Positions 2,479 through 33,851 of a stretch of DNA of 52,299 nucleotides are shown here, piece by piece. Source of the stretch: a virus. Taxonomy: Duplodnaviria > Caudoviricetes. The notes beneath the pieces were generated by a model. It did no database searches and had not been told where the DNA came from. It saw nothing but the letters and a program-made list of their open reading frames with translations. The DNA lies in the IMG/VR virus record IMGVR_UViG_3300030450_003597, positions 1-52,299 of that record; one strand, written 5' to 3'. Position 1 is the first letter of the stretch. Each line of letters begins with the position of its first letter. A program made the position numbers and the translations under genes.

Positions 2479-2838
2479 ATGCAAAAAAGAACAAATCAAG
2501 CAACATTCGCAGTATTGGCAATGTTAACATTCTGGCTAACAATACACACAGTTAAATTAAATACAATAGTTCCAGACTATGAATATTTAACTAAAACTAT
2601 GAATTCTCTTATGAATAGAGTTATAGGAGCTGAAGAATTTATGAGAGAATTAGAAAGTAAAAAGGGTGAATTAGACTATAAAAAGCTTTATGAGAAACAA
2701 ATAGATAGTTTAACACCTTTTGGAGAGAAGTTTAATGAGATGAGAGAAGTATATGGAGCAGGATATACATTCCATTGGAATGGAGAATATTTTACTACAT
2801 ATTACGCTGAAGAAATTAACAATAACCAAACAAGATAA
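2479..2838 (+). CDS. Membrane-anchored protein with a C-terminal F-x-E-x-R...G-x-F-x-W-x-G-x-x-F-T-T motif
   Basis: N-terminal hydrophobic helix; AAGGAG RBS; directly upstream of the Ubl gene. Confidence 0.65.
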   Translation: MQKRTNQATFAVLAMLTFWLTIHTVKLNTIVPDYEYLTKTMNSLMNRVIGAEEFMRELESKKGELDYKKLYEKQIDSLTPFGEKFNEMREVYGAGYTFHWNGEYFTTYYAEEINNNQTR

Positions 2839-2849
2839 GGAGAGAAGGC

Positions 2850-3053
2850 ATGTCTATAAAAATCAATCTATTAAATAATGGTGAGTTCACATCACGAGAT
2901 GTATCTGCAAGTAATGTTGGAGATTTAAGGAATGAATTAGAAATTCCTACATCAGCACAAGTTAATGTTGGTGGAACTATCAGACAAAATGATTTTTCAT
3001 TGTCTGAAAATGATTATGTAGCATATACATCTAACAATAAAGTAGGAGGTTAA
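2850..3053 (+). CDS. Ubiquitin-like beta-grasp protein (ThiS/MoaD-like size) ending in di-glycine
   Basis: 67 aa with a beta-grasp-like pattern and C-terminus NKVGG. In an operon with JAB and E1 genes. Confidence 0.85.
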   Translation: MSIKINLLNNGEFTSRDVSASNVGDLRNELEIPTSAQVNVGGTIRQNDFSLSENDYVAYTSNNKVGG

Positions 3054-3055
3054 TT

Positions 3056-4612
3056 ATGAGCGATAGTATAACTTTCGATAATGGATTAACAGTTTTAAAT
3101 GTTAATAATTTAGATGTATTATCTGAACCATCTCAAGAGTTGGCTAATGCTATCGCTACAGGACCTCAAGATGAATTCTTTCAATTGTTAGAAAGTACTA
3201 ATGGGCTTATTAGGAGATTATCAGCAGGTAGAAATTATTATAATCAACCTGTTGATAATTCTCTTGATGTTTCCATTACACCATCTTGGAATTGGCGACC
3301 AGGAACTTACGATAAAATAAGAGAGCTAACGATAAAAATGCTACAATTAGAAAAGCGTAGTAATGGAGTATATAATTTCATTAAAAGAACAAAAGATAAT
3401 GCAGAATGGACTATGCATACTTTATTACGCAATTTTGATGAACTTGAGAGCTTGAAATCTACATTAAAATCAGAGAATTACCCATATAATGTTGATGTTA
3501 ATGAATATACAGATAAATTAAAATCATTTAGTACATCTGTTATAGAGCAATGTGAGAAAGTTGAAGAAACATTCCAAAACATATCTATAAAACCTTATAT
3601 TCATATAAATCAGGATAATACAAGAAATTCTATGTTTTATTTAGATGTTACATTAAATGAGCTAAAAATGAATGTATTTCATCAAAGAAATAAAATACAA
3701 GAAATTGCTTTAGAGCCTATTAGAATAGTTATTTATAACAAATTAAGGCATACTATGGCCAATTACTTGAAAAATTCTAGAATAAATAATTATTCATTTA
3801 GAGGAGTATATCAAGCAGAAGAATATCAGTATTTTAGCACAGACGATGGTGGAAGAAGTTTTAATTTTCCATATATTGCAAAAGCTAGATATAGGTATGA
3901 TAACCAAAGATATGATTATCAAACAGTATGTTTAGATAAATATTTAGATGATATTAAAAATAATCTAAGTAAAGTTGAATACATGCCAATGATAATGAAT
4001 TTAATGTCTTGGGCTACATATTATAATACTGAATATTCAAATCCTTATAACCAACCTTACGAATTGCATTTTGGTATGCCTGAATATATGAGCAGAGAAT
4101 ACAAATCAACATTTGCTAATGCATCTGATAATTGTTCAAATAGATTAGCGCGTACATATGGATTACATTCACAGCCATCTTTATCATATAAATATTTAAA
4201 TAATGGTATCGATATGATTAATAATGAATGTGATAGGATAAAATGCGTTTGGAGAGAAAATTGTGGAAAATATAGGACAATAAAACGCAATTTCGAATTA
4301 GTTAATAATGAAGATTTGAGGAATCAAGCTGAATCTTTATTAGGATTTATTCAATCTTTAGATGATTGGATGACAATTTTTAGAGATTATTATGGAGCAG
4401 TAGAAGATGATGATGAAATATTATTAAATCTTTTAATAATAAATTATAATCGTGGTAATACTCTACATGGAAATCAAATATTAACTGATTTTGGTTATTT
4501 TGACAAAGAAAATGAAGATAAGCTGGAAGATAGAGATGGAGAAGGTTCAGTACCAACAAGAGAGCAAATACAACAGAGAATGTTGCAATGGGCAACAGAA
4601 AGGAGTATGTAA
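3056..4612 (+). CDS. Putative E2 (UBC-like) conjugating-enzyme domain protein
   Basis: FPYI...VCLDKY...helix...YN...NPYN mirrors the UBC signature HPNI...ICLD...PN..DP.N. Candidate catalytic C292. Lies between the Ubl and JAB genes. Confidence 0.6.
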   Translation: MSDSITFDNGLTVLNVNNLDVLSEPSQELANAIATGPQDEFFQLLESTNGLIRRLSAGRNYYNQPVDNSLDVSITPSWNWRPGTYDKIRELTIKMLQLEKRSNGVYNFIKRTKDNAEWTMHTLLRNFDELESLKSTLKSENYPYNVDVNEYTDKLKSFSTSVIEQCEKVEETFQNISIKPYIHINQDNTRNSMFYLDVTLNELKMNVFHQRNKIQEIALEPIRIVIYNKLRHTMANYLKNSRINNYSFRGVYQAEEYQYFSTDDGGRSFNFPYIAKARYRYDNQRYDYQTVCLDKYLDDIKNNLSKVEYMPMIMNLMSWATYYNTEYSNPYNQPYELHFGMPEYMSREYKSTFANASDNCSNRLARTYGLHSQPSLSYKYLNNGIDMINNECDRIKCVWRENCGKYRTIKRNFELVNNEDLRNQAESLLGFIQSLDDWMTIFRDYYGAVEDDDEILLNLLIINYNRGNTLHGNQILTDFGYFDKENEDKLEDRDGEGSVPTREQIQQRMLQWATERSM

Positions 4613-5532
4613 TGGAACTAAGTCAAATGTTTCATATCAGAGAGAAAAGCTGGTATGAAATAATATCTTGGGCTAAGTTAGCATATGATGAAGATAAAAA
4701 TGAAATATCAGGCTTAGCTACAGCAGTACCTGATAAAAATGGATTCTTTATTATTGGCGATGTAGAAATAATGAAACAAGAAAATAGTGGCTCTAATACA
4801 GAGTTAGATGGAGATGCAGTTACAGCATATAAAATGAAATATGGGATGAAACATAAAAATCCTAATATGAAATTTGTATGGTGGCATTCACATCATACTA
4901 TGGATGCGTTTTGGTCAGGAACTGATAAGCAAGAAATAGATGCCTGGGAAAATGATTCTTTTTCATTAGCTCTTGTTATTAATCTTAAAGAAGAATATAA
5001 ATTCAGAGTAAGTATTTGGAAAGCTGCTGGATTAAATATAGCTCAACATTATGATATTCCATTAAATATATTAAGAAAAAATGGAGTAAATGTAACAGAT
5101 AAAATGAAAGAACAATATGAAGAACTTTGTTCTGATAAACATACATATGTTAACAATCATAATAACTGGAATAATAATTATCAAACAACAATATGGAATA
5201 ATGGCTTTAAAGCTAATATGCCTAATTGGAATGATATGAGCAAATATTCCAAGACACTTGAGTTAATAGAGAGCGCTATGGATGAGTTTATGAGCGATTC
5301 ATTGTCATTTAAAGATTTTAATGACCAAATGAAATTCTTAAATAGTGAAATTAAAAATCATAAAATTAAGGATTACAAGATAAAGATTCCAAAAGGCTCT
5401 AAACAAGCACTAATAAATAAGTTAAGTAGTATCTTTCCTGAAGAGTTATTAGAATTTAAGGATAATGATACAAAAGAGGCTTATCAAAATCAAACTGATG
5501 TTTGGGGAGGTAATTATGGCTACTTACATTAA
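4612..5532 (+). CDS. JAB/MPN+ (JAMM) metallo-isopeptidase
   Basis: NEISG Glu and WWHSHHTMDAFWSGTD (HxH-x7-S-x2-D). Start at 4612 by TAATG overlap with an AGGAG RBS. Confidence 0.9.
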   Translation: MELSQMFHIREKSWYEIISWAKLAYDEDKNEISGLATAVPDKNGFFIIGDVEIMKQENSGSNTELDGDAVTAYKMKYGMKHKNPNMKFVWWHSHHTMDAFWSGTDKQEIDAWENDSFSLALVINLKEEYKFRVSIWKAAGLNIAQHYDIPLNILRKNGVNVTDKMKEQYEELCSDKHTYVNNHNNWNNNYQTTIWNNGFKANMPNWNDMSKYSKTLELIESAMDEFMSDSLSFKDFNDQMKFLNSEIKNHKIKDYKIKIPKGSKQALINKLSSIFPEELLEFKDNDTKEAYQNQTDVWGGNYGYLH

Positions 5533-6199
5533 TACACGCTCTAGTGGATTAATAGATAGTCTTAATAAGCATTCTTTTCATATACTGGGCTGTGGAGCTA
5601 TAGGTAGCTCTGCAGCTACCCAGTTATGTAGAATGGGAGCAGAAAACTTCTCTTTATATGATATGGATAAAGTAGAAACACCAAATATAGGTGTATCTCA
5701 ATATAATCAATGTCATATTGGAATGAATAAGACATCTGCTTTAAAGCAACTATTAATTGATATTAATCATGAAATAGATGTAACTGAACATTTTGGTTTA
5801 TTTAGCAATTATTATTGGAATAGTAATAATGATATTATCATATTAGGATTTGATAGTATGAAATCAAGACTAGAATCAATGGAAATATGTTTAGCTAAAA
5901 GACCAAATTGGCATGAAAGCAAGCCTTTAATGGTAATTGATGGGAGGATGGGAGCCGAGCATTATCAACAGTATACCTTTTTATCTCCTTCTATAGATAA
6001 ATATAAAAAAACATGGTATTCTGATGATGAAGGAAGCTCTGAACCATGCAACATGAAAGCAACAAGCTATTGCTCTAATATGAGTGGAAGTTTTATAGCA
6101 AATACCGTTCGTAAAGTGCTAACTAAGCAACCTTATGAAGCCGCTTTGTCATTTAATTTTCCTACTACAATATTAGAGAAAAAGACCTTGTATAAATAG
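5516..6199 (+). CDS. ThiF/MoeB/E1-like adenylyltransferase
   Basis: ILGCGAIGS, DMDKVETPNIG, DGRMG, and candidate catalytic Cys in EPCNMKA. Start at 5516 after GGAGG. Confidence 0.92.
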   Translation: MATYINTRSSGLIDSLNKHSFHILGCGAIGSSAATQLCRMGAENFSLYDMDKVETPNIGVSQYNQCHIGMNKTSALKQLLIDINHEIDVTEHFGLFSNYYWNSNNDIIILGFDSMKSRLESMEICLAKRPNWHESKPLMVIDGRMGAEHYQQYTFLSPSIDKYKKTWYSDDEGSSEPCNMKATSYCSNMSGSFIANTVRKVLTKQPYEAALSFNFPTTILEKKTLYK

Positions 6200-6308: not shown

Positions 6309-6980
6309 ATGGCATTAAAAAAAGTCAAAAGAAAAGCTGTCTCCAATAATCCTAAAACGATGTTATTATATGGAGCTCCAAAAGTAGGAAAAACTACTGC
6401 ATTAAGCAAATTAGATGATTGTCTAATTATTGATACAGAAGGTGGAGCAAATATGATTGAAGGATATGTAGAGTCAGTAAAAGATAGAGCTGAATTAATA
6501 ACGCTCTTAAAAGAAGCACAAGACGGTCATGAATTTAAATATGTAGCTATAGATACTATAGATAGAGTAGCTACATGGGCAGATAAGGCTGTTTGTGAAG
6601 AAGAAGGTGTATCAGCAGTGCAAGACTTACCTTTTGGAAAAGGTTTTGGTCTTGTAAGAGAAAAAGTATTAAATACTATACATTTTCTTAAAGAAATATT
6701 TCCTCATGTGATAATAATCGGACATAGGAAATGGGCTAGAGCAATAGTAGATGGTAAAGCTATGGTTGAACCAGAAAGCTTAGATTTAACAGGAAAGTTA
6801 AAGAATATGCTGATGGCAGATTGTGATGCTATAGGTTACGTTTATAGAGATGAAGAGAAAAAGAAGTTAATGGTATCTTTTCAAGCAAATGAAGCCCTTG
6901 AAGCAGGAAGTAGAAGTCCTCATTTGAGAGGCAAAGAAATCGAATTAAACTGGAAGCTAATATATAAAGGAGATAAATAA
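6309..6980 (+). CDS. AAA-family ATPase (Sak4/AAA_24-like recombination protein)
   Basis: Walker A YGAPKVGKTT, IIDTEGG, Walker B VAIDTI. Confidence 0.85.
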   Translation: MALKKVKRKAVSNNPKTMLLYGAPKVGKTTALSKLDDCLIIDTEGGANMIEGYVESVKDRAELITLLKEAQDGHEFKYVAIDTIDRVATWADKAVCEEEGVSAVQDLPFGKGFGLVREKVLNTIHFLKEIFPHVIIIGHRKWARAIVDGKAMVEPESLDLTGKLKNMLMADCDAIGYVYRDEEKKKLMVSFQANEALEAGSRSPHLRGKEIELNWKLIYKGDK

Positions 6981-7573
6981 TGGCGATATTTAAACCAGAG
7001 GTAAAATCAAGTCCAACTAATTTCTTAGGATTATGTAAATTTGGTATACTTGAATTTAGAGATAGGTCATCTGAATTTGACTGGGCTGACATTTTCATAG
7101 AAGTCTTAGTAAAACAAGAAGGAAGTGAATATGACAGAACTATTCAAATAAAAGGCTCTTTAGATAAAGAAAATGGAAAGATTGTAGGAGGAGCTGTACT
7201 AAAAAGAATGTATCATACCTTTGAACAATTAGGTTGCGATGCAGGTATAAACATAGATGGAGGATGGGAAGATTCAGATGGAACTGAAATTAAAGATATT
7301 GCAAAATATTTAAATGATAAATTTGTAATAGCTAATGGAAAATCAGAACCAGATATGCATTATTTAGGTTATTTCTACAGAGAGAAACCTAAAGTACCAG
7401 GTGCGAAAGCTTATACAAGAGCTTTTGCTAAGTTCTATAAAAATGAAAATGATAGTGCCAATAAACTTCAAAATGATGTTGATTGGATGAAATCAAAAGG
7501 CTATCTAAAAGAAATGACAGATGAAGTTGAATCTAAAACTGAAATGTCAGGGAGTGGTTTAGATAATCTATGA
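6980..7573 (+). CDS. Putative ssDNA-binding protein
   Basis: Follows the Sak4-like gene; beta-rich with an acidic tail. Called on position only. Confidence 0.45.
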   Translation: MAIFKPEVKSSPTNFLGLCKFGILEFRDRSSEFDWADIFIEVLVKQEGSEYDRTIQIKGSLDKENGKIVGGAVLKRMYHTFEQLGCDAGINIDGGWEDSDGTEIKDIAKYLNDKFVIANGKSEPDMHYLGYFYREKPKVPGAKAYTRAFAKFYKNENDSANKLQNDVDWMKSKGYLKEMTDEVESKTEMSGSGLDNL

Positions 7574-12502: not shown

Positions 12503-12687
12503 TTAAATGCTCAAAATGTAAAGAGTTAATAGGGCCATCAGCGCCTTGTTATAAAGCATCAAGGGGTTTTATGGATAGTGATGGAGTGTTCTATGAAGAT
12601 GAAACTATAGTTTTACACATGGAATGCTATTATCATTATACATTTGACCCTTTTGATGAAATAGAAAAAAATATAAAGAATAGTTAA
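12499..12687 (+). CDS. Small Zn-binding protein
   Basis: CSKC...HMEC. Last gene of the + arm; converges on the RNAP gene. Confidence 0.6.
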   Translation: MIKCSKCKELIGPSAPCYKASRGFMDSDGVFYEDETIVLHMECYYHYTFDPFDEIEKNIKNS

Positions 12688-15600
12688 TATAAAGACATGC
12701 CAGGAGTAGGAGGAGTATAATCAGATTCTCTTATTCTTTTTGCTTCTCTAGCCATTCCAGTTAATGGAAATCCAACTACTTTCTCAGGGAGCCTTAATGG
12801 GTTATTTAATAATCCAGTTTCAGGATGAGCAACATCCCTTATCATTCTACCAAATGGGAACATAGTCCACATATAATAATCAGATAATTTAGTATAATCA
12901 TCTTCAGCAAATTCTCTTATTACAGAGATAGGAAATCTTGCTATAGGAGGAGTAATCATTTGAAGAGGGGCTACAGCTCTAGGATAAGTACCAAAGAAAG
13001 CTCTATCTCTTTCTTTTTCATCACCAAATAGCCATTCTGATGTATCCTGTAACCAATTCCAAGGGGCAGGGAGTACTTGTTCAAATAATGAGTACATGAA
13101 AACTGAAGATAAAGCAAGAACAAATAAATCAGTAGTCATAGTTCTTTCAAATCTTTTCATAGCTTCAGTTCCTGGAGTATATCCATATAAACGAGCTTGT
13201 TTTCTTATATCATTTCTAAATCTAACAGCATTCCAAGACCATAATTGGAATCTTGACATAATTTTACCTAAACCAGAACGAGCAAATGCTGGTCTAAATG
13301 GAGCATTATATAAGAATTGTGTAGCTTTGACACCTTTTTTAGCTATTTCTATAAGATAAGGATGATTTGGGTCTTGTATAGAACCTCCAAATCTTTCCCA
13401 TGCTTTAATATAATGAGCCATAAAAGAATCTCTTCTTAACATTCTTTCAGGTATAGTCATAAATGCAGCAGCTTTTTTCATAACAGCATCTGTAATACCA
13501 TATTTTTTAGAAAGTGCAGTAAAATCTATATCTTTTACTTTTGCATCACTTTTTGATATTTCTATAAGTTCATTTGCAAAAGCTTTACCTTTACCTTCTC
13601 TAAATTCTTTATGTAATCCAAATTCATGTTGTAAAAATTCAGGCTGTATTCCTAAATCAGCTACAAAATCATTAATAGCTTCTTTGTTTTTCCATTTAGG
13701 ATTAATAGTTTGTAAAAAAGAAATATCTCTTGCTTTTCTTAAAGGCTCATAACCTACTGATTGAAATGTATGCATAGTACCACCAAATACATTATTAATC
13801 ATAGTTTTAGGATGAGTCATTAAAGTAGCTAATTGATATTTACCTTCAGTATTAGCAAGACTTCTTATATTATATGCATCTAATCCACCTATAATAATAT
13901 CTTTATCTTGCTTTTTAGTTATATCAATTTCTTTTATTGGGTCTTTGATTAAACCTAATTTTTCACCAATTTTATTTAGTTTTTTAGCAACAAGATTGTC
14001 AGCAAACCAACTATAAGGAGTGCCTTTTAATTTTAAATTAGGATTATCTAATTCAGCTTGAGATAACATTACTGGATTACCCATAGCTTCACTAGCATAC
14101 TTTTTCCAAAAAGTAACCCAGCCTTTAACCATTTCTCTAGCTTCTTTTTTATCCTTTTGAGATGCAGGTGTAACCCATTTTTTATTCATATGTTCCCTCA
14201 TATTATGAAGAGTATATCTAGATACTAAATTCCCCATTTGTCTAAAATAAGTATTTGTTAAGTTTCTAATATAAACTTCAACAGAGGTAGGGTCAACCAT
14301 CCATCCACCCATATGATTATCTCTTGCAAACATATTACCAAATCTCATATTTACAGAAGGAAGTTTAGTAGTTTCTTGTTTGCTTAATTCTTTCTTTTCA
14401 AGTTTAGTTAAAGTTTCTTTAAATAAATCAGCATCTAATTTATTCCACATTTTATAGTCAGCAAAATCCCAATCTCCAATTCTTGTTTTATATTGAGTAA
14501 TAAGTTTTTGAATTTTAGCTTGCTTTTCTTGTTTAGTAAGCGTTTTATCGCTTAATAACATATCTTTTTCATTCTTTAAAGATTGCTTTAATTTCTTTTT
14601 ACTATGAAAATAATGAGGGAAATAACCTTTTCTATATCCTGTGCTATTTATAACTAAGTCCTCATATTCCCTAGCTTTAGCTTCCTTGTCAGGTCTCCAT
14701 TTTGCTTGTTCAAGTTTGGATAATTTCCAATAATCTTCAGTGTTAATCTTTTTAACTTCACCTTTAACAAATCTAGTATATTCAGTAGGAGGAAGTAAAT
14801 CTATAAACATAGAACGAGTCATATGTCTCATTCCATCAACACCTATACCTAAAAATTCATCAACTTTTTTATCTTTAGATGATAATAATTGCCCTTTTTT
14901 ATAAGCTATATCTAAATCATTAATAAAGGATTTATAGTCTAAAATAGGCTGAGTTTGTTTATCAGGGTCATACCAGCCTGTTCTATATTTAGATAAAGCC
15001 CCAGGTCTACCTCTTATAATACTGTGATAATTCTCCATTAAACCTTCTAATTTATTCATTGTATAATCTATTAATTCGTGACCATTATACTTTTTTCTAA
15101 CCCCATCTAACTCAACAACATAGTTTTTATTTCTAATTTTAAAATAATTGTTATTCTTTTGAGAATCTTTCCAATTTTGTTCATATATCTTTTCACCAGA
15201 ATCATGGAATTGTTTTAACTCACTTTTTCTAACAGCAAGACGCCACATAGCATCGCCATCTTTAGTTTGGTTTAAATATTTAAATGAATCTTGAAAACTT
15301 CTTATCAATTCTTCAGATTTACCATAAGATAAATCATGAGTTCTACTTATCCAATTCTGTAATACTTCTCCATAATAAGTAGGTCTATACATTTTACCTA
15401 TTTTTGCAATACCATCTTTTGTTTGAAAATATCCTTCTGAAGGAAGGAATTTCATATCATTAGATAACATCTCAGCATCTATTTGTTTAGGGAATAAAAG
15501 ATGATGCCTTCTTTTTAATCCAGCTTTTTTCAAATTATCTAAATGTTTTTCCATTTGTTGAAACATATTACCGCTTCTTACAAATTTGAAATAATTATTT

Positions 15601-18600
15601 ATCAACTTATAATCTTTAATATTCATTTGATTTAAAGTTTTAGGAGGAACATCTGAAAAAGGTTCATGCATAGTACTATAAATACCAGATAATAATTGAC
15701 TTATATCTTTTCCTTTAGCATCAGAATAGAATTTTAAATTCTCAAATAGTTCCTTAACAATCTTCTTATTTTCAGGAGTAGCTTCAACATTGCCTTTCTT
15801 AATACCTTGATATGCATCAATATCATTTGTAATATTTGCTGCTAATCTTATATCTCTTTTATTTATAAGCGGGTCAATTTCTTTTTCGAAAGATTCTATA
15901 TCTACCTCTTTATAAGGCTCCATAGATTTAAGATAATATTTATTTTTAGTTTTAAAGAAGTTCATTATATTCTTAGAACTAACAACTTTAGAATCGAATG
16001 CAGCTTTAGTAGTATTTGTTTTAGCTCCTTGTTTATATAAATCAGTTAAAGTTATCTTTTCTAATTTATCTTTATTAGGCATTTTCATATACTTATCAAT
16101 AGATTTCTGCATTTCAGGACTTCTTAAAGAGCCAATATACAGATTATCAAATACATCTCTTGCTGACTCCGAAGGTAAGGATTCCTTGTATTTTAATATT
16201 AAATTATCTAAAGTAGCATTGTCAACTAATTTTGTTCTTCTCTCTAATCCTTTAAGATTAATAGGACTTTTCAAATTTAAAGCTTCATGTAAAGATTTTA
16301 TATCTTTCAATCTATTTACTTCTTGAGTTGACTCAGATGGAACAAATTCCCCTCTATTGCTTCTCATTTTATGTTGATAAGCATTAATACTTTTAAATTC
16401 TTCTACTTTAGCTCTTATTTGAGCCATTAATTCATTAGTTAGACCTTCACCTTTTTCATAACTTTTTTCATAAATATCAACTATTCTATCAAGAGTAGTC
16501 ATATTATGAAAAGCATTAGATAGATAATCTTGAGAATCACTTAATAATTTCCTAAGATAGCCTTCTACTTCTACTTCATTTAGAGGGTCTTTGATATTAT
16601 GTCTTATCTTACTAATACCCAATTCTTTAATTAAAGATTTACCATCCTTAGACCAAGATTTAATATTTTCTTCAATAAATAAATCATTTTTAAGTATGAA
16701 GTCAACTTGTTTACTAGGTTCTTCTACTAATTTTGTTCTACCTAATAATTGTTTATAGAAATCTAATTTCTTAGCATATACTTCATGTTTGTTATATAGT
16801 TTTTTATAAGCATTAAAATCAATTCTTTTAAATAAAGATATATCCATATCTACGTTTCTAAGAGTATTGGCAAATTTCATAGTACTAGTTGTCATTTCAT
16901 TACTATCATAATTGTTTATTCTTTTGCCCATCATTTTTTTCTCAAATGGAGTATAACCTCTATTTAAATCCCAATTTCTACTAAAATAAGCAGCATTAAA
17001 ATTCCTAATATCATTATATCTTTGATGATTTTGAGTTTTTCCTTCAATTCCATAAGTTGGAATCTTTGATAAATTAATCCATTTTTTAGTTTTTTCATTA
17101 TATTTTTGAGGAGTAATTTTAAAATAAGCTTCTCTTAATAATGATTGCATCTTAGGAAATTCTATTAATCCAGTTTCATTTGCTGGGTCAGCTGTGAAAT
17201 TAACTAAAGCTTTACTTAAATCTCTTTGTTCAGCACTAGCTTCTTTAGGTTCTAATATAGTCCTATATTTTACCCCATCTTTAAAGATTCCTTTTTCAAA
17301 TACATCAAACTTATTATTACTATGCTTTAAAGAGCTCCATGCAGCTCTCATATGAGATGTCATCCCGACTACTGGTCCCATTTTACCTCTACTCCTGGCA
17401 TGTTCTTGTCCAACAAACATTCGTACAGCAGGAGAGAATCTAGCTAATGGGTTTTTATTTACTTGGTCTAAGAAATCAGGATTTAAACCCCTATCTTTTA
17501 CATCTTTTCTTGATATAACAATTTTATCTCTATATTGAGTTTTAGCATCTTTTATATTAGTCTTATCTTTGGTATAAAATTCTTCTTTTTGTGCTTTATA
17601 CATATCTTTCCAGCTTTTTTTCATACCTTCGCCAGTACCATCAGCATGCCTTCCTCCAAAATATATAAAAGATTCATCTCCATCAAGGTCAGCTCCACCT
17701 TGAGCCTCCATAGACCTTCCGTGAGATAATACTCCATGGTCTTTAATACCAGTAAATCCAGCAAATCTTTTAACTTGAGCTCCTGAAGGTGAATCCTGAG
17801 GTACTCTTACATTGATTGCTTCAAATATATCATCAAACTCTTGTTTGTATTTCTTAAATTCAGGCATATTTTTAACAGACCACAATTTGCCTAATGTAGT
17901 TTTTTCTAATCTAGGAATATTAGTATACATAGGAGTATCTTTATATAAGTCTCCAAGATAGAATATATCATCTTTTTTGTTTAACTCAGGAAACTTTTCC
18001 TGTAAAGATTTATCATAAGGTCTCATCCTGGCTACAATAGCATTTTTCATCTTAGGTCTTAAAACTCTTTCAGCTACAAATCTATCAATAGAAGTATGCA
18101 CATAATCTTTAGTATATTTATCAAAAAACATTGGATAAGCATCTTCCATTTTAGATAAATGCTTAATAATATTATCAGCTGTAGAGTAAAAATCAACTAA
18201 ATTCCTACTTTGTTCTTCAGCTTGAGTTCCAGAGTTTTCGCCTTCATTTCTAGACATTTCTAGAGATTCTTTATTTGTTTTAAGTATCTTTAAAAGCATT
18301 TCTTGAGCTAATTTTTCCGAACCAGGACTTTTCAATACTTTCTCTACAGATTTAATACCAACATCATCAAAGTTTTCTATAATGTCTTTTAATATTTTAT
18401 CAGAAGGTTTTTCTAAATAAGAATCAACTAACTTATTATATTCAGTCTTCCCATCAAACGACCTTTGTGCTATTTCATTATAAAGATTATCGATAGTCTC
18501 TTGGCTAACCTTAGAGTACATATCAGGATGAAGGTTAGTAAGCATTTGTTTTACAAATGTAATGCCTATAGGTTTACCAGCTTCATTTTTACCAAGCATT

Positions 18601-21600
18601 TTATGGTCATTGATAACAGAATGAGAATATCTTAAATCTCCTGGGTTTATTTCAATAATTTCTTTAGCTCCTCCAATAAGCTCTAAAGGTTTACCTTTAA
18701 TATAATTATAATCACCTGGAATCCTGTCTCCTGTTTGTTTAATAGCACTTTCCATCATAAGAAAATTAACGCCTTCTCCATTATTAGCTTTTTCCATAGC
18801 TTTAGTTAAGTCAGGACCAGCTTTATGAATCATATATTTACCAAGTATAGTTCCTTTAGGATTCTTTGATATAATAAAAGACTTATTAGAACCTGTATAT
18901 GGAACTCCTGCATCAAGATTAATAGCATCTACAACTGCATCTGTTGCTATAATAGCTCCATCAACATGCTGAGGTAGTTTTACATTTAAAGCTTTTAATA
19001 TATTATCTATCTTTACGGGGTCAGCAATAAGAGAACCTTTATAGTTACCATCTCTTTTACCTAAAGCTATTTCATTAGCATGATTCTCTCTAGATGCTAG
19101 ATTTTTTATAGCTTCATTTTCAGGTAAAAAATGAGCTTTTTCATGTCTAATTACAAAATCTTCCCAAGATTTATAACTTTTGAAAATATTTTCAGGAAGA
19201 GGATTTACTCCTTTTACTTTAGGTTTTATCCACACTTTATTATCATAATCTTCTCTAAGTTTATCTTTATCAATTTTAATTGCTCTATTTTTCTTATCTG
19301 TTTGCGCAGAAACAAATCTGTCTGAAACAGTTGATTTTATATTCTTAGAATAAACTATCTTTAAATCAGGTAATTTAATTTTAGATAATTTTAAATCTGC
19401 ACCTGTATATTTAGGATTATTAATAAATTCTTTATCTCCTTTAATACCATTAGTCATCCATATTTGAGCTCTTTTATTATCTGCAACAGCATTTTGTATA
19501 AATCCAGGATTATTTATCATTTTATTTATAGGCATACCATTTAATTGCTCTTGATATGCTATAATAGATTTCATCATATTATCATGCTCTAATCGATTCA
19601 TACCATATAAATCTTTAGCAGTCTTATAAATAGAAGGAGGTAAATTTACTTTCTTTGTTTTCTTATAATTTGGATGATACTTAACAAATATTATTCTATC
19701 TTTATCGCCTACTCCACCATATGGATGATAACCTTTTTTACCCATCTTTTTTATAGTATTTGATATAAAGTCCTTTTTAATTGCTTTTTGCTCTAATGAA
19801 GTACCCTCTCTTCTTGTAGCATATTCAAATTTAGATAAGTCATAATCCACGCCTTTATAAGTAAGCGCATCTAATATAGCATATTCAAATTCTTTTGGAG
19901 GCTCTATTACTAATTTTGATTTACCTCCCATTGTATATGGATTTTCTTTATCTGTTAGCTCAACCTTTTTACCATCTGTATTTATAAAACGAACAGCCTC
20001 TCCTTGATTTTGTACAGCAATCCACTGTCTCATTTTACCTTTTAAGTCAGTTGGTAGTTGCATATTAAACTCTTGTTCTATAGCTTCTACCCATTCTGGA
20101 GACCTATTTTTAGTTGAACCTCTTTCTATGTATTCAGGGGCTAATTTACCAGCAGATTTTGATATTTTAACTATCATATCATCTCTTTCAACAGAGCTTT
20201 TAATAGTCTTTTTTAATTCAGGTCTTAAGTAGGTTTGCATAAAATAAGACATTTTATTATCAATAGGGCTAGTATAGAATTCACCTGCATCTCTAACATC
20301 ATTTGTCTCAATATCAAGAATATCCTGTTTTTTATCTATTTCTGCATCAATTTCAGCTTTAAAGCCCATTTTATCCCATTTTTGGAACAAAGACTCTATA
20401 GCCTGCTTCTCACCTATGTCAATAGCTTTCTTTCCAAAAAAGGCTACTCTAGGGCTTAATTCAGGAGTTTTAGCTGTTGTAATGAATTTTTTACTACCTT
20501 TATCATACTTAAGCCATTGCTTAGTTTTATCATAAACATACACCTCTTTACCTGCATCAATACCCATTTGAATTGCATATTTAGATAATCCTTTAGTAGC
20601 AGTCATTTTATCATTTACTTTGTCTACTGATATAATTTGGTCTGAGAATTTAACATTAACGAAATCTCTTCTCATTCCTTCTTTAGCATATTCAGATAAT
20701 CTTCCTATCCTAACCTTTTCTCCAGCTTTATTTAAATTTTCTATAGCAGTATCAATACCTTTATTAGCTTCAACTAGATACTTTCTTTCTATAGTAATTG
20801 ATTCATTAGGCTTACCATAAGTCTTTACTTGGTCAGGGAATTTTGTCTCTACAGAAGATATATCTCTTTTTCTAGCACTCTCTAATACTTGTGCTTGAGT
20901 TCCAGTTTCTCCAGTAGTCATAACATAGTATCTAGTAGGGTCTGGTTTAGAAGCTTCTTTGATAGATTCTCTAATTATTTGTTTTTGTTGTTTTTGAACT
21001 TCTTTTTCTATTTTATCAGCAACTTTAAATACTTCAGAGCGAACATCTTTTCCAGATTTTTGAAGCTCTTCCATCTTAGGAGCCATGCCTTCTACTTCAG
21101 CTCTCCTATAGAGTTCATAGGTAGCTGCTTCTATTTCCTCTGGAGTACCTCCAGCCATACCTGGTCCAGAAGTAATTTTTAAAACCTCTTTTTGAACTTC
21201 AGGTTCTACTTTTTCCCAACCTTCATATAGTTCTCTTGGGTCATAAGTTTTTCTATGAATAGGATTATCACTTTTTTCAGCTTTCTCTCTAACCTTTTGA
21301 GCAATAGGCATAGCCTTAGCTACAGTCCAAGGTTTTTCAGAACCACCAAAGTATGCACCCATAAGATATTCATATACTTGTTCAGGAGTTGAAGCTCCTC
21401 TTGCAGTTGCAGGTAATCCCATAAATAAAGAACCTGCTAAACCTCTTGCAAACTTCTCTGCCTTAGGGTCTTGCATGTTTATTTGATTTCCAATACCTCT
21501 AAATACACCACCAGCTATAGCTCCATGAAAGAAACTATCAAGCATAACATCTACACCACCTTGCCAAGCAGATATAGCACTTGCAGTACCTAGGTTGAAA

Positions 21601-22148
21601 GCACCTTCAGCTATATGTTTTGCTTTTCCTGTAGATAGGAATTTAGCTGCATCTTGAAATGCTTGACTCTTAGCCCCTATTCCAGCTTTTAATCCAGCAT
21701 TAGCTACTTTAGCGGCTCTAGGAGTAATATATTTCTCAGCTACATATAAAGGAATACCTTTTTTACCTTGAAGGAATTTAGCGCTATCTAATAAGGTTCT
21801 ACTTTTAGTAGTCATACCAAGGAATTTAAGAGGACCAGCTAATATACCAGGAGCAAATCCAGCTAAGTGACCTACACTTTTAGCTACTGCTTCCCAAGCA
21901 TTATCTGGAGTATCTTTAGATACATTTAAAGTAGTAAAGCCTTCTAGGAATCCTGCTCCAGCATATTTAATAGCATCAATAATAGAAAAATCCCCTTCAT
22001 AAAAGGGGACATTATGATATTGAGCATGTTGCCTTACAGATTCTAATCCTTGAGGACTAAAATTAGAAGGATTCTTTTCATATGATTTTATGAAATCTCT
22101 AGTCTGAGATTTGGTATAGGAAGGACTCCATTGAGAAGTTTCTGCCAT
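12684..22148 (-). CDS. Giant virion-associated two-barrel RNA polymerase/ejection protein (3154 aa)
   Basis: RVP followed by GADLDGD (D1487-D1491; nt 17676-17690). Upstream HVDG and ESAIK motifs. Ala/Gly-rich hydrophobic N-terminus; last gene of the virion arm. Confidence 0.8.
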   Translation of the reverse strand: MAETSQWSPSYTKSQTRDFIKSYEKNPSNFSPQGLESVRQHAQYHNVPFYEGDFSIIDAIKYAGAGFLEGFTTLNVSKDTPDNAWEAVAKSVGHLAGFAPGILAGPLKFLGMTTKSRTLLDSAKFLQGKKGIPLYVAEKYITPRAAKVANAGLKAGIGAKSQAFQDAAKFLSTGKAKHIAEGAFNLGTASAISAWQGGVDVMLDSFFHGAIAGGVFRGIGNQINMQDPKAEKFARGLAGSLFMGLPATARGASTPEQVYEYLMGAYFGGSEKPWTVAKAMPIAQKVREKAEKSDNPIHRKTYDPRELYEGWEKVEPEVQKEVLKITSGPGMAGGTPEEIEAATYELYRRAEVEGMAPKMEELQKSGKDVRSEVFKVADKIEKEVQKQQKQIIRESIKEASKPDPTRYYVMTTGETGTQAQVLESARKRDISSVETKFPDQVKTYGKPNESITIERKYLVEANKGIDTAIENLNKAGEKVRIGRLSEYAKEGMRRDFVNVKFSDQIISVDKVNDKMTATKGLSKYAIQMGIDAGKEVYVYDKTKQWLKYDKGSKKFITTAKTPELSPRVAFFGKKAIDIGEKQAIESLFQKWDKMGFKAEIDAEIDKKQDILDIETNDVRDAGEFYTSPIDNKMSYFMQTYLRPELKKTIKSSVERDDMIVKISKSAGKLAPEYIERGSTKNRSPEWVEAIEQEFNMQLPTDLKGKMRQWIAVQNQGEAVRFINTDGKKVELTDKENPYTMGGKSKLVIEPPKEFEYAILDALTYKGVDYDLSKFEYATRREGTSLEQKAIKKDFISNTIKKMGKKGYHPYGGVGDKDRIIFVKYHPNYKKTKKVNLPPSIYKTAKDLYGMNRLEHDNMMKSIIAYQEQLNGMPINKMINNPGFIQNAVADNKRAQIWMTNGIKGDKEFINNPKYTGADLKLSKIKLPDLKIVYSKNIKSTVSDRFVSAQTDKKNRAIKIDKDKLREDYDNKVWIKPKVKGVNPLPENIFKSYKSWEDFVIRHEKAHFLPENEAIKNLASRENHANEIALGKRDGNYKGSLIADPVKIDNILKALNVKLPQHVDGAIIATDAVVDAINLDAGVPYTGSNKSFIISKNPKGTILGKYMIHKAGPDLTKAMEKANNGEGVNFLMMESAIKQTGDRIPGDYNYIKGKPLELIGGAKEIIEINPGDLRYSHSVINDHKMLGKNEAGKPIGITFVKQMLTNLHPDMYSKVSQETIDNLYNEIAQRSFDGKTEYNKLVDSYLEKPSDKILKDIIENFDDVGIKSVEKVLKSPGSEKLAQEMLLKILKTNKESLEMSRNEGENSGTQAEEQSRNLVDFYSTADNIIKHLSKMEDAYPMFFDKYTKDYVHTSIDRFVAERVLRPKMKNAIVARMRPYDKSLQEKFPELNKKDDIFYLGDLYKDTPMYTNIPRLEKTTLGKLWSVKNMPEFKKYKQEFDDIFEAINVRVPQDSPSGAQVKRFAGFTGIKDHGVLSHGRSMEAQGGADLDGDESFIYFGGRHADGTGEGMKKSWKDMYKAQKEEFYTKDKTNIKDAKTQYRDKIVISRKDVKDRGLNPDFLDQVNKNPLARFSPAVRMFVGQEHARSRGKMGPVVGMTSHMRAAWSSLKHSNNKFDVFEKGIFKDGVKYRTILEPKEASAEQRDLSKALVNFTADPANETGLIEFPKMQSLLREAYFKITPQKYNEKTKKWINLSKIPTYGIEGKTQNHQRYNDIRNFNAAYFSRNWDLNRGYTPFEKKMMGKRINNYDSNEMTTSTMKFANTLRNVDMDISLFKRIDFNAYKKLYNKHEVYAKKLDFYKQLLGRTKLVEEPSKQVDFILKNDLFIEENIKSWSKDGKSLIKELGISKIRHNIKDPLNEVEVEGYLRKLLSDSQDYLSNAFHNMTTLDRIVDIYEKSYEKGEGLTNELMAQIRAKVEEFKSINAYQHKMRSNRGEFVPSESTQEVNRLKDIKSLHEALNLKSPINLKGLERRTKLVDNATLDNLILKYKESLPSESARDVFDNLYIGSLRSPEMQKSIDKYMKMPNKDKLEKITLTDLYKQGAKTNTTKAAFDSKVVSSKNIMNFFKTKNKYYLKSMEPYKEVDIESFEKEIDPLINKRDIRLAANITNDIDAYQGIKKGNVEATPENKKIVKELFENLKFYSDAKGKDISQLLSGIYSTMHEPFSDVPPKTLNQMNIKDYKLINNYFKFVRSGNMFQQMEKHLDNLKKAGLKRRHHLLFPKQIDAEMLSNDMKFLPSEGYFQTKDGIAKIGKMYRPTYYGEVLQNWISRTHDLSYGKSEELIRSFQDSFKYLNQTKDGDAMWRLAVRKSELKQFHDSGEKIYEQNWKDSQKNNNYFKIRNKNYVVELDGVRKKYNGHELIDYTMNKLEGLMENYHSIIRGRPGALSKYRTGWYDPDKQTQPILDYKSFINDLDIAYKKGQLLSSKDKKVDEFLGIGVDGMRHMTRSMFIDLLPPTEYTRFVKGEVKKINTEDYWKLSKLEQAKWRPDKEAKAREYEDLVINSTGYRKGYFPHYFHSKKKLKQSLKNEKDMLLSDKTLTKQEKQAKIQKLITQYKTRIGDWDFADYKMWNKLDADLFKETLTKLEKKELSKQETTKLPSVNMRFGNMFARDNHMGGWMVDPTSVEVYIRNLTNTYFRQMGNLVSRYTLHNMREHMNKKWVTPASQKDKKEAREMVKGWVTFWKKYASEAMGNPVMLSQAELDNPNLKLKGTPYSWFADNLVAKKLNKIGEKLGLIKDPIKEIDITKKQDKDIIIGGLDAYNIRSLANTEGKYQLATLMTHPKTMINNVFGGTMHTFQSVGYEPLRKARDISFLQTINPKWKNKEAINDFVADLGIQPEFLQHEFGLHKEFREGKGKAFANELIEISKSDAKVKDIDFTALSKKYGITDAVMKKAAAFMTIPERMLRRDSFMAHYIKAWERFGGSIQDPNHPYLIEIAKKGVKATQFLYNAPFRPAFARSGLGKIMSRFQLWSWNAVRFRNDIRKQARLYGYTPGTEAMKRFERTMTTDLFVLALSSVFMYSLFEQVLPAPWNWLQDTSEWLFGDEKERDRAFFGTYPRAVAPLQMITPPIARFPISVIREFAEDDYTKLSDYYMWTMFPFGRMIRDVAHPETGLLNNPLRLPEKVVGFPLTGMAREAKRIRESDYTPPTPGMSLY

Positions 22149-23856: not shown

Positions 23857-24483
23857 TTATAGATTAACTCCTATTTTCCATGCAAATACTCTTAAATGCC
23901 CAGAAGTTTCTTTTGTCATTGCAGTTCCAGTAGCAGAATGAGTATTGTCATGTATTAATATATGCGGGTCAGCAAATCCTATACTCATATAGCTGTTTTG
24001 CATAAATACTGACATTCCAGTATCGGTATTTGTAGGAGTATTATATAATTCAGCTATTCCTATGTGATTAAGTGAAAATATATCACCTGTATTGCCCGCT
24101 GCATCTCCAGTACTTATTTTTACTCCCGTTCCATTTGCTTTGAAATAGAAATGGGTTAATAGAAGCTTACTATTTAAACCATGGTGAAATTTATACCTAT
24201 TATTAGCTGAAACTGCTGTCCATCCACTATCATAATGAGGTGAAATAACAGGATTTTCCCATCCTTTGTTTGTTCTAACTCTCATTTTATAAGAATTATC
24301 TACTTGTCTTTCTACACTTAAGTCACCACTTTTTCCTTTTGTTTCTGGAATCTCTAATTCAGCAGGATTATTAACAGCATCTTTTAATAGATTTAATTTA
24401 TTTTCAATATCTTGTAGGCTTTTTTGAACTCCATTAAAGTCTTTAATTTTAGTTAATATTTTAATCTTATCAATTGAAAACAT
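23857..24483 (-). CDS. Virion/tail protein
   Basis: YDSGW...HHGL motif common in fibre-associated domains. Confidence 0.55.
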   Translation of the reverse strand: MFSIDKIKILTKIKDFNGVQKSLQDIENKLNLLKDAVNNPAELEIPETKGKSGDLSVERQVDNSYKMRVRTNKGWENPVISPHYDSGWTAVSANNRYKFHHGLNSKLLLTHFYFKANGTGVKISTGDAAGNTGDIFSLNHIGIAELYNTPTNTDTGMSVFMQNSYMSIGFADPHILIHDNTHSATGTAMTKETSGHLRVFAWKIGVNL

Positions 24484-27400
24484 TATTTTGTAGATTTTCT
24501 TCTATATAAAATACCAATTGAATCTAACTCTTTATCCATATTCTCTAATTTAAATTGAAGCCATCTACCTTTTTTATTTGAACTACTTATTTTATATTGA
24601 GAATCATTTGTTGATGTAGAACTATATGTTGTATCGGAATTTGATATATTGCCAGTACTTGTTACTAATAGAAGTTTATTTTGACTATTTGTATTGCTAC
24701 CATCAAGATTTACATTTTCTTTAATTCCATTTAATTTAATCTTATTAAATACTTTGACAATAGAATCTTCACCAACTGTTATCTTTTTACTTACCCATGT
24801 ATAATCTCTATAATCAATTCCGCCTTTATATTCATATATAAAGTCACCTATCGGAATACAAACCTCACCTGCAGTTCCTAAGAATGGTTTACCTACATTA
24901 GAATCTTCGCATAAATCCCATAAATCCCATCTTGATTGAGGTATATTATAAGACCAAACAAAGTACTTTACTGTACTTGCATTGTTTGTTCCCTCTTTAT
25001 GATTTATTTTAAATACAACCAATACGCTAGAAGTAGAAGAGTCTAATATTAAAGAAGGGGGAGTAAAATTTGGTTGATTAACTATATTTTTCCATGAAGC
25101 ATCTACAATATTATCATCTCCTCCTAATAATGAATAAAAATCTGTATCAACTTCTCCACTTTCAGATATAGGTTCGGATATTTTTCTAGGAATAGTACCA
25201 TCATGTAAATATATACCAGTTATATCAACAAAAAACATACCATACTCAGTAACAAGAACACTATATTTGTCTATACAACCTATGCCTTCAAAAATATCTT
25301 CTATTACTAGTGTTTCTTGATTTATTCTATAAATATTAGTACTATCAAAGGCATATAATCTTCCATTAAAGTTAGCTAAGGCAGTCGGTTTAGATTTTAA
25401 TAATATAAAATCATTAACCCAATCAAATAAACTAAACATACCAGGTCTAGACCTGAATAACATATTTGAAGCATTTAATACTTTCTGATGAGAACAATCT
25501 CCTACTATTAAATAACCATCAATTTCAGTTGATATTCCATACTTCATATCAACAGTTTCTAAAATTTCAGACATACCTGTTCTTGATTCATATGTAGCTC
25601 CTAATTTTCCAGTATCTACTATAAGATTGCTCCATACTCCTTCTTCTGATTGACTCCATCCAGTTGCAGTACTAACCTCTTTGACTAATCTAAAGAAATC
25701 AGTAACTCCATTTCTTCTATAAATACAAACATGAGTTAATCTCCTGCTGTAATTCTTTATAGCCAATGTAATATTATAACTCCCTACTGCAGAGTTAGGC
25801 GAATCACTATATAATGTTGAAGATAAAGGACCCTCTTGATAGCCATCATATATAAAAGATATTTTATATTCATATCTAACATCTGTTTCAAAAGTATTAC
25901 CACTTCCTTCTGATGTACTCATACTTCCAGGATTTATTATAATATTATTAAAAGCTGCTGTCATAAACATATCTTCAAATACAGCAGAACTAGAATCATT
26001 TCTAAGTAAATTGAATTCAGAAGCTCCTCTATCCCAAGAATTCCAATTATCTCTTATTTTTGTTATCCTAGATTCTGAGCCATTACCACTTTCAATTAAA
26101 AACATCTCCCAATAATTTGTATAAGCTCTACCTTGTAATACCTCTTCATCTTTATGAGCAACATCAAAAGCATTTGCCCCAGAGGTTGCAATGTCTTTTG
26201 TATTAAAAGTTCCACTTATTTTAACATCCTGTACAGATACATTATCAATATTCCAAGTTATTGTCCCATTATGAGTAGATGAAATAATCAAAGCAGCATC
26301 TGAGCTTGCAACTACTTCCTTACTATAATAAGTTTTAGTAGTAGTGATAGAAAATGTATCAGAAGCAGTTCCGCCTATTCCCATGCTAACATTTGTTAAT
26401 GTTCCACTATCAGTCCAAAGTTCGGCAGTAATTCTATAAGTTCTTGCTGAAACTGCTCTTAAGCTACCTGTTCCAAGAGTCGCTCCTTGAGGGTCAGTAT
26501 CTGCAAGATTTGTTATTACTAAATTCGCAGGACTTCCATCATCACTAAATGTAGGAGCTGAACCATCTGGAGAATACTCTGTCCAATTAGAAGCAGAGGC
26601 AAAAGTTCTATCATTTTCATTTTCAATCATCTCAGATTTAAATGTTACAGTATCTCCATCAGATAACTTATGAGCCGTAGAAGAGAGCCTTAAATCATCA
26701 CTATCATTAGCTGTGACTGAGACTGCATATTCTCTTAATTTTCTCATATTAAATCCACCAAACATTGTTCTATACACAGCTCCACTAAAGTTGAGGGCAA
26801 TAGGATTTTGAACTGAAGATATATTATTAATAATTGGTATTGCATACCAATAAGCATCTGTTATTGCAGTTGTTGTAGATACTGTAAATTCACAAGAACC
26901 TGTGACTGTCACTGTATATCCAGTAGGATTTGGAATTCCAACCTTTCTAATCCAAACTTTATCTCCAGTAGTTAAACCATGCTGATAAGTGCATGTAACT
27001 ACGCCACTTCCAGAAACACTACATTTATTTCCTTCTGTTTCAGGTAGTTCTAAATAAGAGCTAGAAGAACCTATATTATCAGATATACTATATGTCCATT
27101 CTCTTTTCATTGGAAGTTTAGCTATAGGGTCTCCTATATAAGCATTATTAGGAGGATAATTATTATAATTTACTAGACCAGTAGTTGAATTTGTAAATTC
27201 AAATGGAATAGTTTGCTGCTTAGCTAGTCTTACAGGAGCAGTGCAAGCTTGCCATGGAGTCCATATATAATAATAGTCATTAATAGAAGGATTATGTCCA
27301 AATGGATAATGGACCATTACATATATAGCATCACTAGTAGCAGAGCTTCCTTGAGATTTACTATCAACAATTTGTCTTGTTTGAATGCATCCTGTTTCTT

Positions 27401-33785: not shown

Positions 33786-33851
33786 TTTTCTCCTTGCATA
33801 TCCATTTAATGTTATTATATGAAGATGTCCAGTATTTGTCAGGAACAATCA

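Follow-up and report, generated by a model that had tools for sequence, protein, structure and literature searches.

X518, a 518-aa protein encoded at positions 3056..4612 (+ strand) of the virus genome IMGVR_UViG_3300030450_003597 (Duplodnaviria; Caudoviricetes), is probably a new and very divergent ubiquitin-conjugating (UBC)-like carrier with accessory N- and C-terminal domains. The window, by which we mean the whole stretch of DNA analysed here, is a complete viral genome of 52,299 bp with ~30% GC. X518 is the second gene of a four-gene cassette, the others encoding a candidate ubiquitin-like protein (Ubl), a JAB/JAMM metallopeptidase and a ThiF-type activating enzyme (E1). We read this cassette as a phage Ubl-E2-JAB-E1 system in which X518 carries the Ubl as the conjugating enzyme (E2), and we give this reading a probability of about 0.6. 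An original prediction, made from the letters of the DNA, had already taken X518 for a cryptic and unusually large E2. The cassette context, the order of motifs around an invariant cysteine and a list of fold matches dominated by E2 and UEV domains speak for that identity, whereas no fold match is significant and no curated E2 hidden Markov model (HMM) recognises the protein.

The UBC-like core and its invariant cysteine

X518 occupies a single open frame and is predicted to be multidomain, with the UBC-like core at residues 140-352 (3473..4111); all of its features lie on the + strand. The strings that had been quoted as parallels of canonical E2 motifs can all be found in the core: F269-N-F-P-Y-I274 (3860-3877), T-V-C292-L-D-K-Y and YYNTEYSNPYN (residues 322-332). 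F271-P-Y-I274 (3866..3877) would be the counterpart of the E2 'HPN[IV]' stretch, and C292 (codon TGT, 3929..3931), 18 residues past it, is the proposed thioester-forming residue. N329-P-Y-N332 (4040..4051) follows the second of two helices.

A word-indexed search for X518 returned 43 proteins, all unnamed and mostly marine, of which 42 were aligned as the close family after a 338-aa fragment (P0043) was dropped. C292, C397 and P330-Y331-N332 are invariant in this alignment, as are G36, Q38, W78 and W80 of the N-terminal region. A profile search of 1.84 billion representatives recovered 384 proteins at E ≤ 1e-3, 251 of them at ≤ 1e-10 and 82 at ≤ 1e-30. Our broad alignment comprises the window protein and 98 of the best 150 of these 384, with fragments shorter than ~390 aa and some close-family rows left out by hand. 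Across its 99 sequences, in which identity falls to ~17%, only two columns are invariant: P330 and C292, the residue on whose conservation the original prediction had made its case depend. At least 90% of the sequences keep W80 and G83 in the N-terminal region, P272, W319, G340, C360, C392, C397 and C403.

Around the proposed active site, position 271 is H in 64 sequences, F in 30, Y in 4 and N in 1, followed by P at 272 (95/99) and I at 274 (83/99). Position 294 is G in 56 sequences, D in 26 and S in 17, while W is found at 319 in 93 and N at 332 in 89. The family signature can be written as [HF]-P-[YF]-I ... [VIL]-C-[LF]-[GDS] ... W..Y ... [TS]-N-P-[LY]-N, which follows the canonical E2 motif order. 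On this pattern C292 would match the E2 active-site position, a placement made from motif order and not from superposition.

AlphaFold2 modelled the full-length protein from the 42-sequence alignment with a predicted local distance difference test score (pLDDT) of 84.2 and a predicted template modelling score (pTM) of 0.73. Modelled alone, from an alignment of the window and 36 of 45 close loci (four duplicates and five truncated rows were dropped), the core reached a pLDDT of 87.9 and a pTM of 0.85. The core model opens with a long helix that leads into a meander of five strands. A short helix and one strand precede the FPYI loop, after which come a short strand with C292 at its end, two helices (W319 on the second) and NPYN. 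Canonical E2/UBC and UEV domains, such as those of Ubc13, UbcH7 and TSG101, have the same order of helix, beta-meander, [HF]-P-x-[IV] loop, Cys and helix, W, and P-x-N. The X518 core differs from canonical E2 in one extra strand, an extra helix and an insert of ~35 residues, and in being flanked by unrelated N- and C-terminal domains in a protein of 518 aa. Single-domain E2 proteins are far smaller.

When the core model was compared with the PDB by Foldseek, 34 of the 43 matches listed named E2 or UEV domains, five were 145-151-aa chains of ubiquitin-machinery complexes and four were unrelated. The E2/UEV matches include TSG101 UEV (the best, E 9.1e-3), Vps23, UbcH7, UBE2S, Ubc2 and Cap2 (7to3, E 0.12) of the cyclic oligonucleotide-based antiphage signalling system (CBASS); Ubc13 (1jbb) had the top probability, 0.89, with a template modelling (TM) score to the target of 0.45. 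E2 and UEV domains account for 10 of the 41 PDB matches listed for the full-length model. In a feature search of the ESM Atlas, the named clusters nearest to the core were viral Prok-E2_D (0.81-0.83) and UQ_con (0.78), a likeness that can serve as a lead only. Ten BFVD entries match the core model at E ≤ 1e-3, all of them uncharacterised phage proteins. Six come from uncultured marine viruses (9e-18 to 9e-9), one is a protein of 420 aa (2.5e-5), and three of 474, 1146 and 381 aa share an E of 7.0e-5, the 381-aa protein being from 'Podoviridae sp.'. Narrowly missing the threshold are a protein of a crAss-like virus (1.3e-3) and one of 435 aa from phage cr128_1 (3.6e-3).

Several results weigh against an E2 identity. 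The parallel with E2 motifs stands as to motif order and the invariant cysteine, but the HPN asparagine is absent throughout the family, Tyr or Phe taking its place (position 273 is Y in 76 sequences, F in 21, W in 2 and N in 0 of 99), and the window has F instead of the E2 H at position 271. The theme of the core fold matches is uniform, yet the scores are sub-threshold: neither the full-length nor the core model has a PDB match at E ≤ 1e-3, and the matches of both have TM scores to the target of 0.25-0.48 and root-mean-square deviations of ~7-15 Å. X518 matches 0 families in Pfam, PHROGs and PADLOC, and so does not reach UQ_con at its gathering score. No E2 family, UQ_con and Prok-E2 included, was found in 37 core-domain sequences by a permissive Pfam scan (E ≤ 10), nor any E2-type family in the same sequences by NCBIfam with its PRTRC models, and Pfam returned nothing meaningful for 10 distant family members. 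Prok-E2_D (PF14460) has 0 matches at E ≤ 10 in the six-frame translation of the window, and PDB sequence-profile searches with the X518 family alignments gave chance matches only (E of at least 0.1). The candidate Ubl adds to this side of the balance: a beta-grasp fold finds no Pfam match there, and MoaD appears only at E 0.81 in a PDB profile search.

Searches further afield were similarly empty. NCBIfam gave X518 only a chance match to YcgN (15.8 vs 248 bits), tblastn with X518 as the query found no match among 50,697 phage records of GenBank, and a scan of 185,579 cellular species genomes with the close-family pattern produced 37 pattern matches, 0 of them confirmed. The core profile found five proteins of 105-385 aa in a 5.8-billion protein set, none a stand-alone annotated E2. 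Four are short pieces without Pfam domains, and the fifth (P0112, 226 aa) has only FAD/NAD-binding families (PF00890, PF07992, PF12831) among its precomputed annotations, and no E2 family. Because X518 belongs to none of these families by the models tried, it should not be filed under UQ_con, Prok-E2 or PRTRC; the best description is of a protein that works like an E2.

Some of these observations would also suit a protein that belongs to the Ubl system without being an E2, i.e., a UEV-like adaptor or scaffold, a dedicated conjugation substrate, or a new Cys enzyme with a superficial UBC likeness. The best fold matches, TSG101 and Vps23, are non-catalytic UEV domains (all sub-threshold), there is no E2 HMM match, the HPN Asn is missing, and for ~300 of the 518 residues no fold relative can be recognised. 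UEV domains, however, lack the active-site cysteine, unlike X518, in which C292 is the most conserved residue. A cysteine that is invariant at ~17% identity would be unexpected in a pure adaptor or substrate, and the cassette encodes an E1 with invariant cysteines but no other E2 candidate, which leaves the carrier role vacant. We therefore regard this alternative as unlikely.

Partner genes and competing pathways

The cassette order Ubl - X518 - JAB - E1 holds in 87 viral loci as far as their contigs extend. Among 45 close loci in IMG/VR, identified with the window proteins by phmmer, X518 is found in 45, JAB in 44, E1 in 42 and Ubl in 36, and absences occur only at contig ends or where <450 nt lie upstream. 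Among 42 distant viral loci from three divergent subfamilies, searched with HMMs, the counts are 42 for X518, 40 for Ubl, 38 for JAB and 36 for E1, again limited by contig ends.

The candidate Ubl (2850..3053, +) is a 67-aa protein that ends in ...SNNKVGG*, its stop lying 2 nt before the X518 ATG. K-x-G-G can be found in all 76 loci with a Ubl match, 36 of which end at GG, as does the window Ubl, while the other 40 carry tails of 1-14 aa, mostly 1-4 residues in the distant clades. K64, G66 and G67 do not vary across 63 sequences. GG followed by a tail is the usual precursor form, which implies a maturation role for JAB. A small protein ending in GG, or in GG plus a short tail, and adjoining E1 and JAB is the generic mark of a Ubl cassette, and is what we find here. 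When the Ubl profile was searched against the PDB, its C-terminal strand (D-G-x-x-V-A-x-x-S-N-N-K-T) gave spurious repeat-summed WD40 matches (E 1.8e-5 overall, each stretch non-significant), a caution for automated annotation of the Ubl. Within 3042-3058, its end codons GGA GGT TAA contain AGGAGG ~7 nt 5' of the X518 ATG. The Gly-Gly end would then double as a Shine-Dalgarno-like site, which may imply translational coupling.

The JAB/JAMM metallopeptidase (4588..5532, +; 314 aa) overlaps the end of X518 by 25 nt and carries the motif HSHHTMDAFWSGTD. Its Prok-JAB match (E 1.3e-3) lies below the Pfam cut-off, and the JAMM motif H-x-H-x7-S-x2-D is present in all 44 close homologues. The ThiF-type E1 (5465..6199, +) is a 244-aa open reading frame (ORF), conserved from ~M18 at 5516, that matches Pfam ThiF at 3.8e-20 and has a GCGAIGS nucleotide loop. 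The cysteine of this loop, C195 and C203 are invariant in 66 sequences. UBA5, MccB and ThiF are the nearest solved structures; because their alignments cover profile positions 14-120 and stop before C195 and C203, these two residues can only be putative catalytic cysteines.

The main rival, in itself quite improbable, is a sulfur-carrier pathway, in which the 67-aa protein would be a ThiS/MoaD-type carrier, thiocarboxylated via the E1 and trimmed by JAB, and X518 a Cys-dependent sulfurtransferase that would place sulfur on a small molecule or a nucleic acid within the replication module. Some sulfur pathways do use JAB, and JAB trimming of carriers is known from the CysO/Mec+ and QbsE/QbsD systems. 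As in the ThiS/ThiF and MoaD/MoeB pairs, a small GG-ended carrier is found here with a minimal ThiF-type adenylating enzyme. The Ubl is ThiS-like in size, and the combination of a GG-ended protein, a minimal ThiF and a JAB fits such a pathway, a point that also counts against conjugation. The best named matches of the E1 are ThiF/MoeB-type adenylyltransferases, its homologues in crAss-like and Flavobacterium (Fpv) phages are annotated as 'thiamine biosynthesis protein' in GenBank, X518 is Cys-rich (the invariant Cys plus a group of four), and the cassette lies among DNA-metabolism genes.

On the other hand, the E1 scores far under the ThiF/MoeB equivalog cut-off of NCBIfam (71.7 vs 159 bits), X518 resembles E2 and UEV folds and no sulfurtransferase, and the four-Cys group is dispensable in one subclade. 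In X518, in the E1 (ThiF domain only) and in the neighbours scanned there is no match to a rhodanese, cysteine desulfurase, PP-loop or any further family of sulfur transfer, and sulfur donor or acceptor enzymes are absent from the ten neighbours searched with Pfam and PHROGs and the five searched with NCBIfam and PADLOC. Unlike in the sulfur-carrier pairs, a UBC-like Cys protein stands between carrier and E1, and the precursor tails together with JAB point to processing and conjugation. That X518 merely shares an operon with functionally unrelated neighbours, for which the lack of direct interaction evidence may be cited, is hardly credible, given that the gene order is held in 87 loci while X518 falls to ~23% identity, that the genes abut or overlap (a 2-nt gap upstream and a 25-nt overlap downstream), and that crAss-like and Flavobacterium phages have a syntenic ~420-444-aa protein at the corresponding position.

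The conjugation reading has precedents in bacteria. Ubl-JAB-E1-E2 operons were described by Iyer, Burroughs & Aravind (2006; PMC1779556) as class 6d; as far as the available part of that paper goes, the E2-like proteins of this class likewise deviate from the classical E2 His, and only a tail-assembly Ubl/JAB pair is described for phages. The class 6d and Bil operons combine the same four functional parts in one operon, but are located on bacterial chromosomes or mobile elements, whereas the X518 cassette is phage-borne and lies in the replication module. In the accessible portion of Ye et al. (2024; PMC11601596), the characterised bacterial pathways are type II CBASS, Bil and Bub, each of which is linked to immunity against phages.

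PADLOC (E ≤ 0.1) assigned 0 families to X518, JAB and Ubl and no Bil or CBASS component beyond the E1, which its CBASS 'E1-E2' models match in their E1 part only (best 5.4e-15). Type II CBASS Cap2/Cap3, like the present cassette, joins an E1, an E2-type Cys carrier and a JAB without a separate E3 ligase. Cap2 is an E1-E2 fusion, whereas here the E1 and the E2-like protein are separate genes accompanied by a free Ubl. In CBASS it is the C-terminus of the CD-NTase that becomes conjugated; no CD-NTase or CBASS effector was found among the ORFs scanned, which represent part of the genome. The PRTRC set (NCBIfam TIGR03734-03742) is a further putative Ubl/E1/E2/JAB-type cassette on mobile elements and phages. 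The window JAB scores 15.9 bits with PRTRC_A (E 7.2e-3; cut-off 101.8) and the E1 19.5 bits with PRTRC_ThiF (E 4.8e-4; cut-off 144.75), less than with generic ThiF models, while X518 and Ubl match no PRTRC model. A ParB-related gene, as expected in a PRTRC cassette, was not seen among the ORFs covered by the general library scans (part of the window). No description of a complete phage-borne Ubl cascade, crAss-like phages with ThiF included, was found in the literature searched, subscription journals and supplements lying outside that search, and the terms 'phage-encoded', 'phage genomes' and 'prophage' do not occur in PMC11601603.

Accessory regions of X518 and a possible route of conjugation

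The N-terminal region (residues 1-139, 3056..3472) is modelled as a beta-hairpin with helices and contains the conserved motifs ATGPQDEFF and SWNWRPG. It has no family match in Pfam and no fold match in the Foldseek comparison of the full-length model with the PDB. The ~200 unassigned N-terminal residues first proposed are better put at ~140-175, with the core helix of the AlphaFold model starting at residue 148 and the first sheet strand at residue 176.

Downstream of the core lies the cysteine cluster noted in the original prediction, C360 ... C392-DRIK-C397-VWREN-C403 (4133..4264). Its conservation was borne out: C292 and all four cysteines are present in 90 of the 99 sequences, with C-x4-C-x5-C as the commonest spacing (66/90), and the apparent losses in P0141 and P0175 are alignment slips with C-x2-C nearby. 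In a 5-member subclade, C360, C392 and C403 are lost together, while C292 and C397 are kept. Because three of the cysteines disappear together where C292 stays, the four can be regarded as one unit that is dispensable for the role of C292. The group is likely to be a structural metal site. Its participation in a thioester relay was considered and rejected on the evidence of the same subclade, and neither Foldseek against the PDB nor the ESM Atlas offered a fold or feature lead for this region.

X518 is the least conserved of the four cassette proteins in all 62 loci that contain all four, each compared with the window proteins. Median identities are 62% for Ubl, 31% for X518, 48% for JAB and 61% for E1, in a set that includes near-duplicates and in which one locus (L067) is on the same contig as another (L035). 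With its closest relative (L001), the window shares 93-97% identity in Ubl, JAB and E1, and only 68% in X518. By blocks of 50 residues, the identity of X518 to this relative is 96% at the N-terminus, 38-52% over residues ~350-500 and 100% in the final block. The least conserved part is the variable C-terminal helical region (residues 417-500, 4304..4555), where close-family members average an identity of 0.16-0.22 to the window residue, compared with 0.44-0.50 in the N-terminus and the Cys292 block. It is followed by a C-terminal helix ending in ...MLQWATERSM (4556..4609), 100% identical to that of L001, in which W512 and A513 are kept in at least 90% of the close family. A clamp-docking peptide at this end was considered and dropped, the consensus [ML]-[LMIQ]-x-[WF]-[AV]-[TS] of the close family (42 sequences) having no conserved Gln. 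A search of the ESM Atlas with residues 346-518 gave no usable match.

A fast-changing C-terminal region between conserved ends has the expected look of a specificity module, and is consistent with built-in target selection without proving it; the divergence could also simply reflect weak constraint. The extra domains are consistent with the earlier suggestion of an E3-like selector or a metal binder. No RING, HECT or other E3 family is found among the neighbour proteins scanned, in line with the earlier remark that no separate E3 is visible.

A four-step route can be proposed for the UBC-like carrier. JAB would trim Ubl precursors so that Gly-Gly is exposed, a step that the GG-ended window Ubl would not need, and may also reverse conjugation. 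From what is known of its family, the E1 would adenylate the Ubl C-terminus and probably load the Ubl on one of its two invariant cysteines. The Ubl would then pass to C292 of X518 as a thioester, as the invariance of this residue, the motif order and the fold tendency suggest. Finally, X518 would hand the Ubl on to a target, and the likeliest selector of that target would be its fast-evolving helical region near the C-terminus. As the cassette has no separate E3, the choice of target would fall to the N- and C-terminal domains of X518.

Related cassettes, genome setting and significance

The E1 matches 76 records among GenBank phages at 26-32% identity, including 29 Bacteroides crAss-like phages (crAss001 among them) and 29 Flavobacterium psychrophilum phages. 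Since all named hosts of the matched phages are Bacteroidota, a Bacteroidota host is a reasonable inference for the present phage. In order, the replication module of crAss001, cr128_1 and bajarodcaudo virus 1 encodes a primase, a 201-253-aa protein, a 433-444-aa hypothetical protein, a 'metalloprotease domain' protein and ThiF. The cassette HMMs recognised the E1 in all three (5e-26 to 2e-30) and JAB in two of the three (8e-6 and 3e-5). The crAss001 cassette is Gp79-Gp78-Gp77-Gp76 (HMM E values 8e-6 for JAB and 5e-26 for the ThiF E1), and in crAss-like phages the cassette adjoins a primase and a uracil-DNA glycosylase. The cassette of Flavobacterium phage Fpv20 is gp58-gp57-gp56/54-gp53, where gp57 has 420 aa and gp53 is ThiF; HMM E values are 2.5e-8 for JAB and 1e-23 for the ThiF E1. 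GenBank labels the parts in these phages 'thiamine biosynthesis protein', 'metalloprotease' or 'hypothetical'.

The small crAss-like protein resembles the window Ubl at its N-terminus, reads ...NKKIKSGA and then continues in a long extension; in Fpv20 gp58 the Ubl-like part ends in ...VKSGG. The Ubl-like domain occupies the N-terminal ~85-90 residues of proteins of 201-289 aa (crAss001 Gp79, L089 1286-1963; L090 1617-2222; L091 1538-2299; Fpv20 gp58, L092 574-1443). Its junction reads ...K-S-G-A or ...K-S-G-G, the extension is partly acidic, and a tail reading ...E-I-[DN]-x-M-F... is conserved at the C-terminus of the three crAss-like proteins. This arrangement suggests either a cleaved precursor or a tag joined to a second function.

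The middle protein of 420-444 aa has the motif H-x-H-[VL] ... C-x-G in both groups (YMHSHV ... C-x-G with an invariant Cys in the ~440-aa crAss-like proteins). The X518 HMM does not match the crAss-like and Fpv middle proteins, and hhalign of the X518 family with four of them is not significant (E 0.24), its only alignment pairing C292 with the crAss invariant Cys. The link between X518 and these proteins is structural and syntenic only. Judged by organism name and length, the cr128_1, crAss-like virus and 420-aa entries matched in BFVD are presumably products of these cassette genes. In Fpv20 (L092 2653-4945), JAB is split into gp56 (2653-3006) and gp54 (4001-4945) around an opposite-strand endonuclease gene, gp55 (3169-3918), and the JAMM H-x-H begins at residue 3 of gp54. 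The split looks like a homing-endonuclease insertion or an intron- or intein-type interruption.

According to library scans, the terminase, portal, major head protein and tail spike of the window are encoded on the minus strand and the replication module on the plus strand. The E1 is followed 3' by a Sak4-like ATPase, a 197-aa ORF, a primase-helicase and an HNH endonuclease, in this order. The fixed place of the cassette in a replication module, with the Sak4-like ATPase and primase-helicase here and the primase and uracil-DNA glycosylase in crAss-like phages, suggests targets in replication or host takeover.

Directly 5' of the Ubl is a 119-aa ORF (2479-2838, +) with a hydrophobic N-terminus and no Pfam match, which many of the close loci share at this position (phmmer E as low as 2e-57) and which may be a fifth cassette member. 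The 197-aa ORF (6980-7573, +), between the Sak4-like ATPase and the primase-helicase, is kept in nearly all loci extending that far and matches no Pfam or PHROG family. A 56-aa ORF (161-331, +) has two Cys pairs (C-x2-C ... C-x2-C) and is zinc-ribbon-like. Two giant ORFs (12684-22148 and 24483-33848, both on the minus strand; 3154 and 3121 aa) make up ~36% of the genome. Both are without PHROG matches and without Pfam matches above threshold, and their sole match is a sub-threshold E1_FCCH (23.3 vs 29.5 bits) at residues 2281-2329 of ORF 24483-33848.

We hold it possible, as a tentative extension, that Bacteroidota phages ranging from ~52-kb marine phages to human-gut crAss-like phages run their own Ubl tagging. 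A self-contained X518-type E2/E3 hybrid would then tag replication or defence proteins of host or phage early in infection, while its variable C-terminal domain keeps pace with these targets as in an arms race. With 384 representative clusters, the X518 family is large; it is unannotated in all libraries tried and unmatched in the cellular pattern scan, and hence fills a blank in many marine viral genomes. The syntenic cassette is also found in cultured phages, among them crAss001, whose host is Bacteroides intestinalis, and the Flavobacterium phages of the Fpv group, which makes the hypothesis testable at the bench. If it is true, a virus of prokaryotes would tag proteins with its own ubiquitin-like modifier, and this complete cascade, fixed in the replication module of lytic phages, would be the mirror image of bacterial anti-phage Ubl defence, as the accessible part of PMC11601596 presents it.

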